Assembly: GCA_963836185.1 (NCBI GenBank) | Contig: CAWIIQ010000001.1 | Coordinates: 864,001-928,000, forward strand | Reading direction: 5' to 3' | Length of the DNA stretch: 64,000 nt | Source: Candidatus Krumholzibacteriia bacterium | GTDB taxonomy: Bacteria; Krumholzibacteriota; Krumholzibacteriia; Krumholzibacteriales; Krumholzibacteriaceae | Shown: positions 54,169 to 63,406 of the stretch, piece by piece | Layout of the letters: every line of letters starts with the position of its first letter | Position numbering within the stretch: position 1 is the stretch's first letter | The notes under the pieces: generated by a model | The model's database searches: none | What the model saw: the letters and a program-made list of their open reading frames with translations, nothing else | What the model was told of the DNA's origin: nothing | Position numbers and translations under genes: made by a program

Positions 54169-54245
54169 TGGTGGCGGTGCAGGGACTTGAACCCCGGACA
54201 CGCGGATTATGATTCCGCTGCTCTAACCAACTGAGCTACACCGCC
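54169..54245 (-). tRNA. tRNA-Met (CAT), probably elongator
   Basis: GGCGGTGTAGCTCAGTTGGTTAGAGCAGCGGAAT-CAT-AATCCGCG..GTTCAAGTCC..CACCGCCACCA. Confidence 0.95.
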
Positions 54246-58000: not shown

Positions 58001-58074
58001 TGGAGAGTCGTCCAACGGTAGGACAGCTGACTCTGGATCAGCCGATGGGGGTTCGAGTCCTCCCTCTCCAGCCA
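58001..58074 (+). tRNA. tRNA-Gln (CTG)
   Basis: TGGAGAG/CTCTCCA acceptor stem, GCTGA-CT-CTG-GA-TCAGC anticodon arm, GTTCGAG, CCA end. Confidence 0.95.
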
Positions 58075-58085
58075 TTTTTTATCAA

Positions 58086-58160
58086 GGCCCCTTAGTCTAG
58101 TGGTCAGGACGCATGGTTCTCAGCCATGAATCAGGGGTTCGACTCCCCTAGGGGCTACCA
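58086..58160 (+). tRNA. tRNA-Glu (CTC)
   Basis: GGCCCCT/AGGGGCT acceptor stem, CATGG-TT-CTC-AG-CCATG anticodon arm, GTTCGAC, CCA end. Confidence 0.95.
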
Positions 58161-58165
58161 GATAG

Positions 58166-58201
58166 AAGAACCGGCCGCCGTAATGGCAGCCGGTTCTTTT
58201 T
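58166..58201. terminator. Probable bidirectional intrinsic terminator
   Basis: AAGAACCGGC.GCC-GTAAT-GGC.GCCGGTTCTT-TTT between convergent transcription units. Confidence 0.75.
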
Positions 58202-58219
58202 CTGTCAGCAAGTCCCTCA

Positions 58220-58236
58220 AGCGGCGGACCGCCGCT
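58220..58236 (-). promoter_or_regulatory. Candidate bacterial SECIS for the FmdB-family gene
   Basis: AGCGGC-GGTCC-GCCGCT hairpin starting 15 nt after the in-frame TGA at 58252-58254. Confidence 0.5.
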
Positions 58237-58425
58237 CTATCTGAAGGGGTTTCAGCCGAAACCACCCGACGGGGCGCATCCCGAAGCGGAGCTGGCGAAG
58301 ATAGAGAATTCCCTCTCTACGTCGTCGCTTTCGCAGTCGGGGCAGGAGACTCTCTCCGTGGAGTTCATCACGAGCTCCTCGAAGCGCTTCCCGCACGTCT
58401 CGCATCTGTATTCGTACAGCGGCAT
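58237..58425 (-). CDS. FmdB-family zinc-ribbon protein; candidate selenoprotein (57 aa to TGA 58252, 62 aa to TAG 58237)
   Basis: Hand translation MPLYEYRCETCGKRFE..CPDC..GCAPSGGFG-[TGA]-NPFR-TAG; GGAG RBS; absent from the ORF track. Confidence 0.85.
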
Positions 58426-58593
58426 CTATTCTCCTTCGGTTTTCTTTTCTTCCTTCTTTTCTTTATCTTCATACCGGTCCCCGGTATCGCACGTTCCGCT
58501 CATTCAGGTGGGAACGCCCATGCGGGGCAGCACTATCCTCATTATCACGATCCATATCGCAAGAAACAATAAAAGCTGCAGGATCTCACCCAT
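58426..58593 (-). CDS. Small single-TM membrane protein; candidate selenoprotein (UxxxxC)
   Basis: Hand translation MGEILQLLLFLAIWIVIMRIVLPRMGVPT-[TGA]-MSGTCDTGDRYEDKEKKEEKKTEGE-TAG; the readthrough frame ends directly before the next ATG. Confidence 0.75.
58471..58487 (-). promoter_or_regulatory. Candidate bacterial SECIS for the small membrane protein
   Basis: ATACCG-GGGAC-CGGTAT hairpin starting 16 nt after the in-frame TGA at 58504-58506. Confidence 0.6.
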
Positions 58594-58596
58594 TCA

Positions 58597-58983
58597 CTAC
58601 ACTCCCTCTATTACATCGGCCAGCTTGTCGCGGACAATCGCTCCGACCCCCGCGAGGGCCTCGTTTCCTACCACGCTCATCGCGGACATCGGATCTATAG
58701 CGGATACCTCGACGCTTCCATCGTCGGTCTCGCGGACGATGACGTTGCATGGAAGCATAAGGCCCACTCTGTCCTCGGCCTTGAGCGTCTCGTACGCGAG
58801 CGGAGGATTACAGGCTCCGAGTATCCTGTACTGCGTAAACTCGACATCGAGCTTTTTCTTGAGCACCGCTTTGACATCTATGTCGGTCAGTACGCCGAAT
58901 CCCTGCTTCCCGAGCTCCTCGATAGTCTTCGAGACCGCTTCGTCAAAACCCAGTCCGACTCTCTTCGATATATGATAACTCAT
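58597..58983 (-). CDS. DUF302 domain protein
   Basis: GFGVLTDIDV..KKKL..YRILGACNP..GLMLPCNVIV. Confidence 0.9.
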   Translation of the reverse strand: MSYHISKRVGLGFDEAVSKTIEELGKQGFGVLTDIDVKAVLKKKLDVEFTQYRILGACNPPLAYETLKAEDRVGLMLPCNVIVRETDDGSVEVSAIDPMSAMSVVGNEALAGVGAIVRDKLADVIEGV

Positions 58984-59396
58984 TCCGTGTCGCCTCCGGC
59001 CAGCGGCTGATCGGCAGGGGATATACCGGGATCCCCCGCCGGTCGCCGTGGATAAAAACTGCGCAGCGCGTCCAGTCGATCTGTTGCTGTGTCTTCGATC
59101 GATCTGCAGACCATTCGGCAGATATCCTCAGGAAGGGTGCTGGTAAGGCTGTAGAAGATCTTCCTGTGGTCCCGCCGGGTACTGACCAGCTCGTGCCGTC
59201 GCAGTATACTCAGATGTTTCGAAACGCAGGCCTGGCCGTATCCTGTCTCATCGACGATGCAGGAGACGTTTTTTTCTCCGCCGCACAGGCAATGGATTAT
59301 GGCGAGCCTCGCCGGGTCCGACATAGCCCTGAGCCTGCCTGCAATCGCGTCGAAAGTGCCGTTATCGTTTTTCGCGGCCAAGTCTGCTCCTTTCAT
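58980..59396 (-). CDS. ArsR/SmtB family transcriptional regulator (Cys-rich)
   Basis: AMSDPARLAII, VSKHLSILR and IFYSL; true start may be TTG 59381 after AGGAG. Confidence 0.9.
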   Translation of the reverse strand: MKGADLAAKNDNGTFDAIAGRLRAMSDPARLAIIHCLCGGEKNVSCIVDETGYGQACVSKHLSILRRHELVSTRRDHRKIFYSLTSTLPEDICRMVCRSIEDTATDRLDALRSFYPRRPAGDPGISPADQPLAGGDTE

Positions 59397-59451
59397 ATTC
59401 TCATATATTAATATAACAATATGAAAGGTATGTCAAGGAGTTATTTCAGGG

Positions 59452-60876: not shown

Positions 60877-61404
60877 TCATCTGTGGATAGTCTTGATCCC
60901 GCCCCAGGTGCTCTGTTCGGTCGAGGTAAGTACGGGAAGCGTGATGGAGTAGACCCACAACTCTCCCGCGGTACTGGTAGTAAGCCTTGCCTTGTACACG
61001 GGGCCGTACAGCCCGAGGATGTCTCCGCCGAGTGAGAGGATGTTGCAGCTGCAGCTTCCGAATCCGGCGCCGGTGAAATCGAAGGGGATCACCTGCTGCT
61101 CGCTGGTCAGTATGTTCGTCACGGTCAACTCGAGATGGTACTGCACGCTGTCTTCGCCCCTGGTGGCCATCCGGATCTCGTAGGTGCCGTAAGATTGTGG
61201 AGAGATATCGTACTCGACCCATTCGCCGGGGAAATCGAGGCCTGTCATCCATCCGATAAGGTTGGAGCCTACCGGATCGCCAGCTATGTCGAGGCTGTCG
61301 GTGTATTCGCTGGCGTATAGGAGGATATCCTGCGACGATGCCGCCTGCGGAAATACCAGCGACAACGTGCTAAGGGTGATGATTGCAGCGACCCTGAACT
61401 TCAT
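60877..61404 (-). CDS. Secreted protein (CBM6-like beta-sandwich) with C-terminal STWGGIK motif
   Basis: Signal peptide MKFRVAA..; GEWVEY; ends TSTEQSTWGGIKTIHR; GGAG RBS. Confidence 0.7.
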   Translation of the reverse strand: MKFRVAAIITLSTLSLVFPQAASSQDILLYASEYTDSLDIAGDPVGSNLIGWMTGLDFPGEWVEYDISPQSYGTYEIRMATRGEDSVQYHLELTVTNILTSEQQVIPFDFTGAGFGSCSCNILSLGGDILGLYGPVYKARLTTSTAGELWVYSITLPVLTSTEQSTWGGIKTIHR

Positions 61405-61443
61405 CTGATGGTCTCCATATAAGAAAAACTTACTTGAATTGTA

Positions 61444-61472
61444 AGTATATATCAGTGGGATGTTTCTGTCAA
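61444..61472 (-). promoter_or_regulatory. Strong sigma70 promoter
   Basis: Minus strand TTGACA-17 nt-TATACT. Confidence 0.6.
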
Positions 61473-61489
61473 TGCCGCAAGGCGATGCG

Positions 61490-63406
61490 TCAGTCTGTAT
61501 CGACCGGTCTGCCCACGAACCTGACGAATGCCAGCAGGAATCCGGCGCCCGTCGCGAGCGAGAGGACGGCGGGTACTCCTGCCGCCAGGAGGAGGTAACC
61601 GAACACGATCGATGCCGCTCCGACCGTAAGGGCATAGGGGAGCTGAGTGCGGACATGATCGACGTGGTCTGCGCCGGATGCCATCGAGGACATGATCGTC
61701 GTGTCGGAGATAGGTGAGCAGTGATCGCCGAACACCGCTCCCGCGAGGATAGCGGCTATCGATGAGTAGAGTACGCGGTCCAGCTCCGCGCCGCTTCCCG
61801 CCTCGCCCGCGAATGTTCCATAGACGAGCGGAATGACGATGGGAGTGAGTATCGACATCGTGCCCCAGGATGTACCCGTTGAGAAAGAGATGCCGACTGC
61901 CAGAAGGAAGACGAGCATCGGGAGGAACCGGGGCGAGATGAGACCCGACAAGTGATGAACCAGGTAATCGGCAGTCCTTATCTCGGAGCAGACCCTGCCG
62001 ATGCACCATGCCAGAACGAGGATGATCATTGCCGGCACCATCGATTTGATTCCGTTGACCAGCGCCATCACGGTATGCGTGAGGTCGAGCAGTCTCTGTC
62101 CCAGGGCCAGCGCGGCGGCGACGAAGCACCCTGAGAAGGATGCCCAGAGCAGCGCCTTGAAAGAATTCGATTCCTTTATAATGTCAAGAAGGCCGGCGCC
62201 GGTGACCCCCTCCGCTGCGAGGGATGACTTTCCCGTCACGATCAGCCCGATGATAGTTACGATTATCACCGTCGATATCGGAATGATGCCGTTGAGGAAA
62301 CGTGGGGCCGCCCCCGGGGCGGGAGCGATGCTCTCCGCGTCCATGTCGGACATCGGGAGGGCCGAGTCGCTCGCGAGCCTGCCGGTCGTACGCGCGCGGC
62401 GTTCAGCCTTGTACATCAGGGAATAGTCTCTCCCCGACAGTACGATTATAAGGACGAAGAGGATCGCGAGGATCGGGTAAAAGTTGTACGGGATAGCGGA
62501 GACGAACGTGCCGAGCGGATTGCGGTCGACGCCCAGCGCAGTGAAAGACTGTGCGATCAGCGAGATCTGAAATCCTATCCAGCTAGTGATCACGGCCAGC
62601 ACCGTGACGGGCGCGGCGGTGGAGTCGACTATATAGGATAGTTTCTCACGGGAGATCTTCAGCCTGTCGGTGAGGGGCCGCATCGAGTTTCCTACTATAA
62701 GCGTGTTGGTGTAATCATCGAAGAAGATCAGGACCCCGAGCAGCCATGTGGTCAGCTGTCCCCTTTTCGGAGTCGTCGCAAGTCGGGACACCTTGTCGAC
62801 GATGCCCTGCATCCCGCCCATCCTCGATGTGATACCGACCATTCCGCCGAGTAGAAGAGTAAACACTACGATCGAGACATGATCCGCTCCTTCATCCGGG
62901 CTCGAGAGTGTGCCGACTATATAGTAGTCGACTACGTGCAGGAGCGAACCGAGCGGATGGTACCCCCAGAGTATGAACGATCCGAGCCAGACTCCGGCGA
63001 GCAGCGCGACTATGACCTGCCTGAATGCCAGGGCGAAGACGATCGCGATCAGGGGCGGGAGGATCGAAAGAAGACCGTTTACCGCTCTCGTCTCTACATC
63101 CCATGTCTTTCCGCCGGCGGTCGTGCTGATACTGTGCGCGCCCGGGCCATCGATCTCGAGCATGGGGGGAGAGGCCTTCAAACCCTCTGAAGAGCCTGAA
63201 TAGACTATCTTCCCGTCCAGGGCTATGGTGACGGGGATATCGATCCCGATGTATTCTTCTGAGTATCCGGCAGGGGGCGAGTACCTGAAAGGCACCCCCT
63301 TCAGGACCGTCGTTTCAGGTGACGCTATCAGGGCAGACGGCACAATATGCAGAAGGATCATGGTGACGAGGACCGCGAGAAAAATTCGTCGCGGGAAATG
63401 GCTCAT
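61490..63406 (-). CDS. Na+/H+ antiporter NhaC family protein
   Basis: IFFDDY, SREKLSYIVDSTAAP, TGTSWGT, GDHCSPISDTT and HVRTQLPY. Confidence 0.92.
   Translation of the reverse strand: MSHFPRRIFLAVLVTMILLHIVPSALIASPETTVLKGVPFRYSPPAGYSEEYIGIDIPVTIALDGKIVYSGSSEGLKASPPMLEIDGPGAHSISTTAGGKTWDVETRAVNGLLSILPPLIAIVFALAFRQVIVALLAGVWLGSFILWGYHPLGSLLHVVDYYIVGTLSSPDEGADHVSIVVFTLLLGGMVGITSRMGGMQGIVDKVSRLATTPKRGQLTTWLLGVLIFFDDYTNTLIVGNSMRPLTDRLKISREKLSYIVDSTAAPVTVLAVITSWIGFQISLIAQSFTALGVDRNPLGTFVSAIPYNFYPILAILFVLIIVLSGRDYSLMYKAERRARTTGRLASDSALPMSDMDAESIAPAPGAAPRFLNGIIPISTVIIVTIIGLIVTGKSSLAAEGVTGAGLLDIIKESNSFKALLWASFSGCFVAAALALGQRLLDLTHTVMALVNGIKSMVPAMIILVLAWCIGRVCSEIRTADYLVHHLSGLISPRFLPMLVFLLAVGISFSTGTSWGTMSILTPIVIPLVYGTFAGEAGSGAELDRVLYSSIAAILAGAVFGDHCSPISDTTIMSSMASGADHVDHVRTQLPYALTVGAASIVFGYLLLAAGVPAVLSLATGAGFLLAFVRFVGRPVDTD

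Follow-up and report, generated by a model that had tools for sequence, protein, structure and literature searches.

Bacterial selenoproteins decoded by SelB and a SECIS element have been grouped into 119 families (Table 1 of PMC13188914), which share an in-frame TGA, Cys homologs, a G-loop hairpin 16-37 nt downstream and the genes selA, selB, selC and selD. The bacterial SECIS rules given in the same source place the loop 16-37 nt after the UGA, with a G in the first two loop places and a stem of 4-16 bp. Small selenoproteins behind an ArsR/SmtB regulator are described for the Tso operon, which comprises TsoA (LULAxC), TsoB (UxxxxU), TsoC, TsoX, TsoY and TsoR (Haft and Tolstoy 2025), and selenoproteins of the FmdB family were reported from ocean metagenomes (PMC2398784). 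Rhodanese, persulfide dioxygenase and TauE are parts of the cst sulfide-detoxification operon (PMC12934615), and DUF302 was reported inside sox clusters (PMC5037610).

Here, we analysed a peptide gene in a 64,000-nt stretch of DNA from Candidatus Krumholzibacteriia bacterium (GCA_963836185.1), referred to as the window. The gene (58426..58593, minus strand) very likely codes for 55 residues with one membrane helix, a predicted Sec at position 30, Cys35 and a charged, disordered tail. As in the Tso operon, more than one small selenoprotein would stand behind an ArsR/SmtB gene, and the U-to-C/U spacing of five described for TsoA and TsoB is that of the peptide; however, the peptide matches no Tso model and the ArsR protein scores 47.6 against a TsoR cut-off of 115. 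Neither its motif nor its build (one helix, disordered tail, no folded domain) occurs among the 119 families tabulated in PMC13188914. Searches with NCBIfam (June 2026) and Pfam brought none of 58 aligned members near the cut-off of a model, and none of the catalogued selenoprotein families (Tso, Sao, UXX-star, GOS, deep-Sep hypotheticals) passed its NCBIfam or Pfam cut-off for the peptide. The best E-values, 0.022 for NCBIfam and 0.0024 for Pfam, belong to generic membrane-helix matches; weak hits to ATP synthase b' and an arabinan transferase were dismissed as generic helix similarity. A prior description was not found in the literature searched, and the family may be mentioned earlier in Haft and Tolstoy 2025, BSepDB or bioRxiv supplements. 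It is well supported at the sequence level that the peptide represents a new selenoprotein family, outside all listed families, which would employ the known SelB/SECIS decoding.

The peptide gene and its in-frame TGA

The reading frame consists of 29 codons, the TGA at codon 30 (58504..58506, minus strand), which we infer to be a Sec codon, and 25 sense codons with a Cys at +5, and it ends with a TAG (58428-58426) that adjoins the ATG (58425) of an FmdB-family gene. Translated with Sec at the TGA, it yields a hydrophobic helix, an LPRMGVPT turn, position 30, Cys35 and a Lys/Glu/Asp tail. The ribosome-binding site GAGGGAG (58602..58608, minus strand) lies within the 3' end of the preceding DUF302 gene, overlaps its last codons and is spaced 8 nt from the ATG at 58593. 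The sequence features named in the first-pass annotation are thereby confirmed, and they lie on the minus strand; a plus-strand reading of 58426..58593 gave no sensible ORF and was discarded. That the readthrough frame exactly fills the intergenic gap is true of the window, but it does not hold as a conserved trait: the distance between frame end and FmdB start is 0 nt in only 5 of 63 loci and lies between -14 and 61 nt in 58 of them.

An open frame behind a TGA is common in itself, as at least 14 open codons follow the TGA in 553 of 970 long TGA-ending ORFs of the source genome. A protein query matched the peptide in 48 of 61 related genomes; among the 49 matches listed, 44 contain one TGA, and the five without it are weak helix-only matches. 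All 30 loci returned by the query have the TGA and all 30 have the Cys at +5, compared with a Cys at +4 to +6 after 52 of the 970 control stops. It is therefore conservation, rather than the open frame or hairpin stability alone, that exceeds chance.

We placed 200 non-redundant family sites from at least four bacterial phyla, in which codon 30 is TGA at 134, TGC at 52 and TGT at 14, while TAA and TAG do not occur. The Cys forms (66 of 200) were mostly found with patterns demanding PTCM, so that the ratio of 134:66 is not a census. Duplicates of the first 30 loci were left out before counting, as were L007 (TGA) and L132, L133 and L168 (Cys), which the motif pattern missed. A second Cys at +4 to +6 is present in 122 of the 134 TGA forms and absent from the other 12. 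Judged from these alignments, Sec or Cys at codon 30 is the invariant element, and the second Cys appears dispensable in some members. The TGA/Cys alternation and the conserved downstream Cys, both named beforehand as support for selenocysteine, hence back the selenocysteine reading of the first-pass annotation, in which the redox motif is a putative one, and the alternative stop codons that would have contradicted it are missing from all 200 sites. We followed the selenoprotein criteria of Haft and Gwadz, together with the SECIS rules of PMC13188914: where at least 10 candidates are asked for, TGA makes up 134 of 134 stop-bearing sites, and similarity continues across the site, where 101 of 131 full-length proteins, comparable in length, have Cys.

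The 50%-identity protein library gave 276 matches, and among the 131 full-motif proteins listed the site holds Cys in 101, Trp in 22 and Gly in 3. The Trp and Gly entries could suggest a genome-wide reassignment of TGA to one of these residues in the lineage. We give this hardly any credence, as 970 long ORFs of the source genome end at TGA, its tRNA with a TCA anticodon is classed as tRNA-Sec, and homologs free of the TGA align a Cys at this place in the 101 of 131 just mentioned; the two residues probably stem from gene callers applying codes 4 or 25. In the 90% library, 84 of 92 matches end in PT and are mostly stubs. Databases hold the family as a stub of 26-30 residues or not at all, and standard searches miss it because it is short.

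These truncated entries would also fit a TGA that truly stops translation after a 29-residue membrane peptide, whether or not a 25-residue peptide (MSGTC...) starts on its own behind it. In line with this are the broken selB of the source assembly and the 79 TGA forms, out of 134, in which an ATG follows directly. This reading is very improbable. TAA and TAG never replace the TGA, whereas Cys codons do; the Met is missing from 55 of the 134 TGA forms (which have Ala, Gly, Leu, Val, Arg, Ser, Thr or Ile there) and is equally present in Cys forms, internally in the chain. An inner ATG is preceded by a Shine-Dalgarno core in only 8 of 48 cases and lacks it in 40, compared with 54 of 94 for the upstream start, so that a conserved initiation signal for the second peptide was not found and the two-peptide version was rejected. 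The covarying hairpin described below also speaks against a plain stop.

A selenocysteine reading agrees with the equipment of the genome. The source genome has tRNA-Sec, and selA and selD score above cut-off, while selB is present as several frameshifted pieces (C1:47900-49840), so that all of selA, selB, selC and selD are represented. The breaks in selB are likely assembly indels because an EF-Tu-like gene is similarly split in two (C1:71107-71980) and selB is whole in five of five genus mates. Within the phylum of the source genome, selA occurs in 176 of 181 genomes. In the sample seeded with Planctomycetaceae, selB accompanies 23 of 23 TGA carriers (background 180 of 251), and the sole Cys carrier lacks it. 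The picture is less tidy elsewhere, as selA is present in 4 of 10 genomes with the Cys form. We hold insertion of Sec by SelB at codon 30 to be almost certain. The RNA runs were uninformative, with shares of at most 0.06 and with contigs from relatives that include arsR but lack the peptide gene.

The family is widespread, and its build (a single membrane helix and one Sec, without a folded domain) is absent from the current catalogue. It was found in 127 of the 181 genomes that represent one phylum, and sampling of three other phyla gave 10-29%. The first value comes from a profile search in the phylum of the source genome, where 40 lower-scoring loci that we inspected have TGA without exception. 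The other phyla were sampled from a Planctomycetaceae seed (24 of 251 genomes), a Deltaproteobacteria seed (24 of 201) and a Bryobacterales seed (58 of 201); 49 loci read from the latter two samples comprise 40 with TGA and 9 with a Cys codon. Pattern scans located Cys forms in genomes of Acidobacteria, Planctomycetes, Deltaproteobacteria, Chloroflexota and Cyanobacteriota, plus 63 metagenome loci. In 28 mixed TGA/Cys rows, P23, G26, P28, T29, C/U30 and C35 are invariant; among Cys forms alone, P23, G26, C30 and C35 do not vary over 72 aligned proteins.

Some genomes carry two or three copies (L088, L099 in G065, G112, G149, G698), and two copies of G065 are without the second Cys. A tree of 198 rows and 31 columns gave 18 Sec/Cys changes, a figure without a null from an alignment too short to trust. 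No member was found in viral contigs with a pattern that recognises Cys forms only, and the search for longer proteins returned a single match explained by an over-extended start. A pattern match in an archaeal genome (L042:3977-4228), without helix or second Cys, was dropped as a chance hit. Apart from the peptide, the in-frame TGA within selD itself (C1:1062116, plus strand) falls in a UxxK motif and represents a selenoprotein form already known. A rough scan listed four further candidate Sec sites: UxxC with a hairpin, preceded by a strand-like segment (C2:103354, plus), CCGU (C3:218979, minus), a CxxxU-like motif (C3:177802, minus) and a CxU-like motif (C1:968359, minus).

The hairpin downstream of codon 30

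A SECIS-like hairpin (58471..58487, minus strand) with a 7-bp stem and a G-led GGA loop begins 16 nt after the TGA, where the first-pass annotation had put it, and its loop lies 23 nt after the TGA. The element satisfies the spacing, loop and stem rules stated in PMC13188914. Its stability alone is only mildly higher than that of shuffled sequences (z -1.35 and -1.94), and the stem energy is -7.7 in the window and weaker than -7.5 in 6 of 30 loci. In all 30 near loci, the loop is G-led, closed by a stem of 5-8 bp and placed exactly 23 nt behind the TGA. Covariation within these stems is high: 95.9% of cells are paired and 39 cells are changed on both sides, and neither value was reached in any of 500 shuffles, although this is not a probability, the rows being related. 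Controls in slid registers pair only 17-34% of cells.

The hairpin marks TGA forms rather than Cys forms. A hairpin at least as strong as -6 kcal/mol at 16-26 nt was detected in 82 of 94 TGA forms versus 8 of 58 Cys forms. Across six loci of the genus, the six codons of the hairpin show zero substitutions, compared with 18 silent and 5 other changes in the five preceding codons. The residues encoded by the hairpin, GDR, are kept in near TGA forms and missing from Cys forms, and the tail 3' of the hairpin is poorly conserved. The locus is a clear example of protein sequence being dictated by an RNA signal, with GDR conserved only where the SECIS is present. Two scans were given no evidential use: a genome-wide search for one loop type after TGA, with 139 matches among 116,182 TGAs that are nearly all noise, and a codon-usage scan that failed to recover the peptide gene itself.

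The zinc-ribbon partner gene

Directly downstream lies an FmdB-family zinc-ribbon gene (TIGR02605, PF09723; 58237..58425, minus strand) with a GGAG site of its own. It is predicted to encode 62 residues, with Sec58 on a Gly/Ser-rich tail followed by four residues. The CxxC...CxxC protein reaches 61 bits with TIGR02605 (cut-off 31.3), and 20 of 20 aligned partners match this model as well. The gene ends with TGA in 63 of 63 loci; in all 63 the next in-frame stop is no more than four codons away, and 55 have a G-loop hairpin, whereas of 970 control genes 182 have such a close second stop, 22 a hairpin and 6 both. Twelve further FmdB TGA cases were noted in other phyla. In the window, the hairpin (58219..58237, minus strand; z -3.24) places its loop 22 nt after the TGA (58254-58252) and has no U tract; its stem covaries at the base, and a separate terminator-like hairpin stands farther 3'. 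The latter is probably a two-way terminator between the operon and a convergent tRNA-Glu (58166..58198; z -8.4 and -7.5), though a scan did not call it. Measured against the criteria for C-terminal Sec, the invariant TGA, the near second stop and the hairpin are present, but Cys homologs are lacking, with Cys at the Sec position in none of the 120 homologs listed (best 120 of 908). Sequence features make it very likely that the FmdB gene hides a second Sec near its end, a point absent from the first-pass annotation.

The partner belongs to the same TIGR02605 family as the FmdB selenoproteins from ocean metagenomes. In the account given by PMC2398784, those rest on two reads and carry Sec in a CxxU motif (UxxU according to PMC13188914), while here all four zinc Cys are kept and Sec would sit on the tail. 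A C-terminal Sec is also found in UXX-star, KCU-star and SaoC proteins, and that of the FmdB partner would likewise be 1-4 residues before the end, but none of the UXX-star models match it.

FmdB neighbours are restricted to TGA forms (77 of 134, against 0 of 66 Cys forms). One may ask whether the TGA of the peptide gene serves as a selenium gauge, in which readthrough dependent on Sec-tRNA brings ribosomes to the FmdB start, so that the zinc ribbon is made only with enough selenium and the peptide itself matters little. This neighbour bias, the narrow range of -14 to 61 nt between frame end and FmdB start in 58 of 63 loci, and the weakly conserved tail after the hairpin would all suit such a device. 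We nevertheless regard it as unlikely: 57 of the 134 TGA forms have no FmdB gene in the flanking DNA covered, the FmdB gene has its own GGAG site, and Cys forms, which have no TGA to sense, keep P23, G26, C30 and C35 throughout the 72 proteins.

Topology, neighbouring genes and proposed function

The hydrophobic stretch of the peptide has a mean Kyte-Doolittle value of 2.6 over 17 residues, and AlphaFold predicts a single helix (residues 2-25, pLDDT about 90), no strands and a disordered tail. Foldseek retrieved no PDB match for this model, and a single ESM Atlas cluster at 0.88 with 123 members is a lead only. The helix is flanked by acidic residues on its N-side and basic ones on its C-side, and the C-side is the more positive in 96 of 131 and 52 of 63 sequences, the remainder being mostly equal. 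Because of this charge bias and the positive-inside rule, we infer that the N-terminus is out and the C-terminus in, which would place Sec30 and Cys35 on the cytoplasmic side. The eukaryotic proteins SELENOK and SELENOS are likewise single-pass, N-out/C-in anchors with Sec in a disordered cytoplasmic part near the C-terminus. By analogy, anchor, topology and a disordered Sec-bearing part would be shared, but the Sec of the peptide adjoins the membrane instead. The peptide is no thioredoxin-fold selenoenzyme, for which a Trx fold with UxxC or CxxU is expected, as it has one helix and a UxxxxC spacing.

Genes in the window are arranged in the order MATE exporter, ArsR, DUF302, peptide and zinc ribbon. 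The DUF302 gene (58597..58983, minus strand), with two invariant Cys, represents a recurrent neighbour of the family, and the ArsR/SmtB repressor (58980..59396, minus strand), with CxxxC in its last helix and a Cys after helix 2, is the probable regulator of the operon. A TTGACA-like hexamer followed by an AT-rich imperfect palindrome (59400..59436, minus strand; palindrome at 59400-59430), recognised visually in each of 13 upstream regions, forms a probable promoter/operator, although the promoter scan did not call it. In 29 own-family loci, ArsR flanks the peptide in 23 and the zinc ribbon in all 29. Within 1.5 kb of the 200 sites, we counted zinc ribbons at 77, ArsR at 36, YgaP-like membrane domains at 32, DUF302 at 24, thioredoxin at 21, rhodanese at 12, CcdA at 10, metallo-beta-lactamase and pyridine nucleotide-disulfide oxidoreductase at 5 each and TauE at 4. 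These figures derive from profiles built from Pfam-identified members, with uneven flanks, no random background and related genomes that are not independent. At least one thiol or sulfur gene stands beside 45 of 59 pattern-found Cys sites versus 4 of 71 sites of the own phylum, where the zinc ribbon is the steady partner. Other frequent neighbours are Usp, RND efflux and anti-sigma genes, which fit general stress or metal export equally.

Rhodanese, metallo-beta-lactamase, TauE and a Cys-bearing repressor, as found in the cst operon of Staphylococcus aureus (PMC12934615), recur beside Cys-form members. We found no such peptide in the description of cst-type operons in PMC12934615, however, and the operon in the window has only DUF302, ArsR and the zinc ribbon. 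In five genomes (L212-L216), the Cys form is fused to DUF302 via a flexible linker, and all five fusions lack the second Cys; the linker of the fusion model has a pLDDT below 50 and so carries no information on contacts between peptide and DUF302. Rhodanese, ECF sigma or DsbA-like genes were seen beside these fusions. A database protein (P0200) joins the peptide and thioredoxin in one chain, a single case that may be a frameshift artefact. Directly before the Cys-form peptide, a zf-HC2 anti-sigma gene was observed at 12 of the 59 pattern-found Cys sites (e.g. L143, L147, L155, L162, L171), an adjacency that could reflect a role in ECF sigma signalling.

From the neighbours (DUF302 and its fusions, thioredoxin, rhodanese, YgaP and CcdA), we consider it somewhat probable that the peptide, tethered to the membrane, carries sulfane sulfur or exchanges disulfides through its selenol or thiol at the cytoplasmic face. 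The downstream hairpin would direct selenocysteine into the TGA at codon 30 to yield a 55-residue one-helix selenoprotein, with Sec30 held a few residues off the inner membrane surface, past the helix-breaking LPxxG turn. Sec30 may then attack a persulfide or disulfide, and Cys35 would resolve the product into a selenenyl-sulfide ring. A soluble operon partner with Cys or Sec (DUF302, thioredoxin or, here, the zinc-ribbon Sec on its flexible tail) might recycle or unload the peptide, and ArsR with its CxxxC would lift repression as thiol-reactive stress rises. Against this role weigh the missing resolving Cys in 12 of 134 TGA forms and in all five DUF302 fusions, and the scarcity of thiol/sulfur neighbours in the own phylum (4 of 71). 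Extending the carrier proposal, we tentatively suggest that peptide and zinc ribbon may form the smallest known selenium relay, in which sulfane sulfur or electrons move between cytoplasm and membrane by way of an anchored selenol and a soluble one carried on a swinging Gly-rich arm. Such a module would be retained throughout most of a phylum as well as in Acidobacteriota, invisible to annotation, and would be the Sec version of a Cys micro-protein of persulfide operons in many phyla.

The ArsR gene raises the question of metals. Sec30 and Cys35 might instead be membrane-bound ligands of a soft metal or metalloid (As, Hg, Cu, Cd), which would then pass to efflux systems or the zinc ribbon, with ArsR sensing the metal. 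ArsR/SmtB genes upstream at 36 of 200 sites and 23 of 29 own-family loci would agree with this idea, as would Cys in the last ArsR helix (29 of 40 and 34 of 40), RND efflux genes by 5 of 48 Cys loci scanned, the MATE exporter upstream in the window, and several membrane selenoproteins that PMC13188914 ties to metal resistance. We hold metal binding to be the leading alternative, though rather improbable: genes for thioredoxin, rhodanese, CcdA, TauE and persulfide-dioxygenase-like proteins are more numerous among the neighbours than metal-resistance genes, members with a single Cys are expected to bind metals poorly, and the ArsR protein passes none of the metal-specific cut-offs of NCBIfam. 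It likewise falls below the cut-offs of all other named NCBIfam subfamilies, among them the BigR/SqrR-type persulfide sensors (BigR 49.8 of 155) and TsoR (47.6 of 115). The family offers a way into DUF302 and FmdB zinc ribbons, both of them common and of unknown function, and its Cys form is short enough for direct synthesis and assay.

Elsewhere in the window, tRNA-Gln and tRNA-Glu genes (58001-58160, plus strand) lie behind gltX and converge with the operon, and a tRNA-Met(CAT) gene (54169-54245, minus strand) adjoins tilS. An ORF of 259 codons without a family (60877-61656, minus strand) ends in a short TWGxIK-type tail, which we take to be a sorting motif of the source lineage; an ORF near C1:1391600 has a related FlgD-like context.
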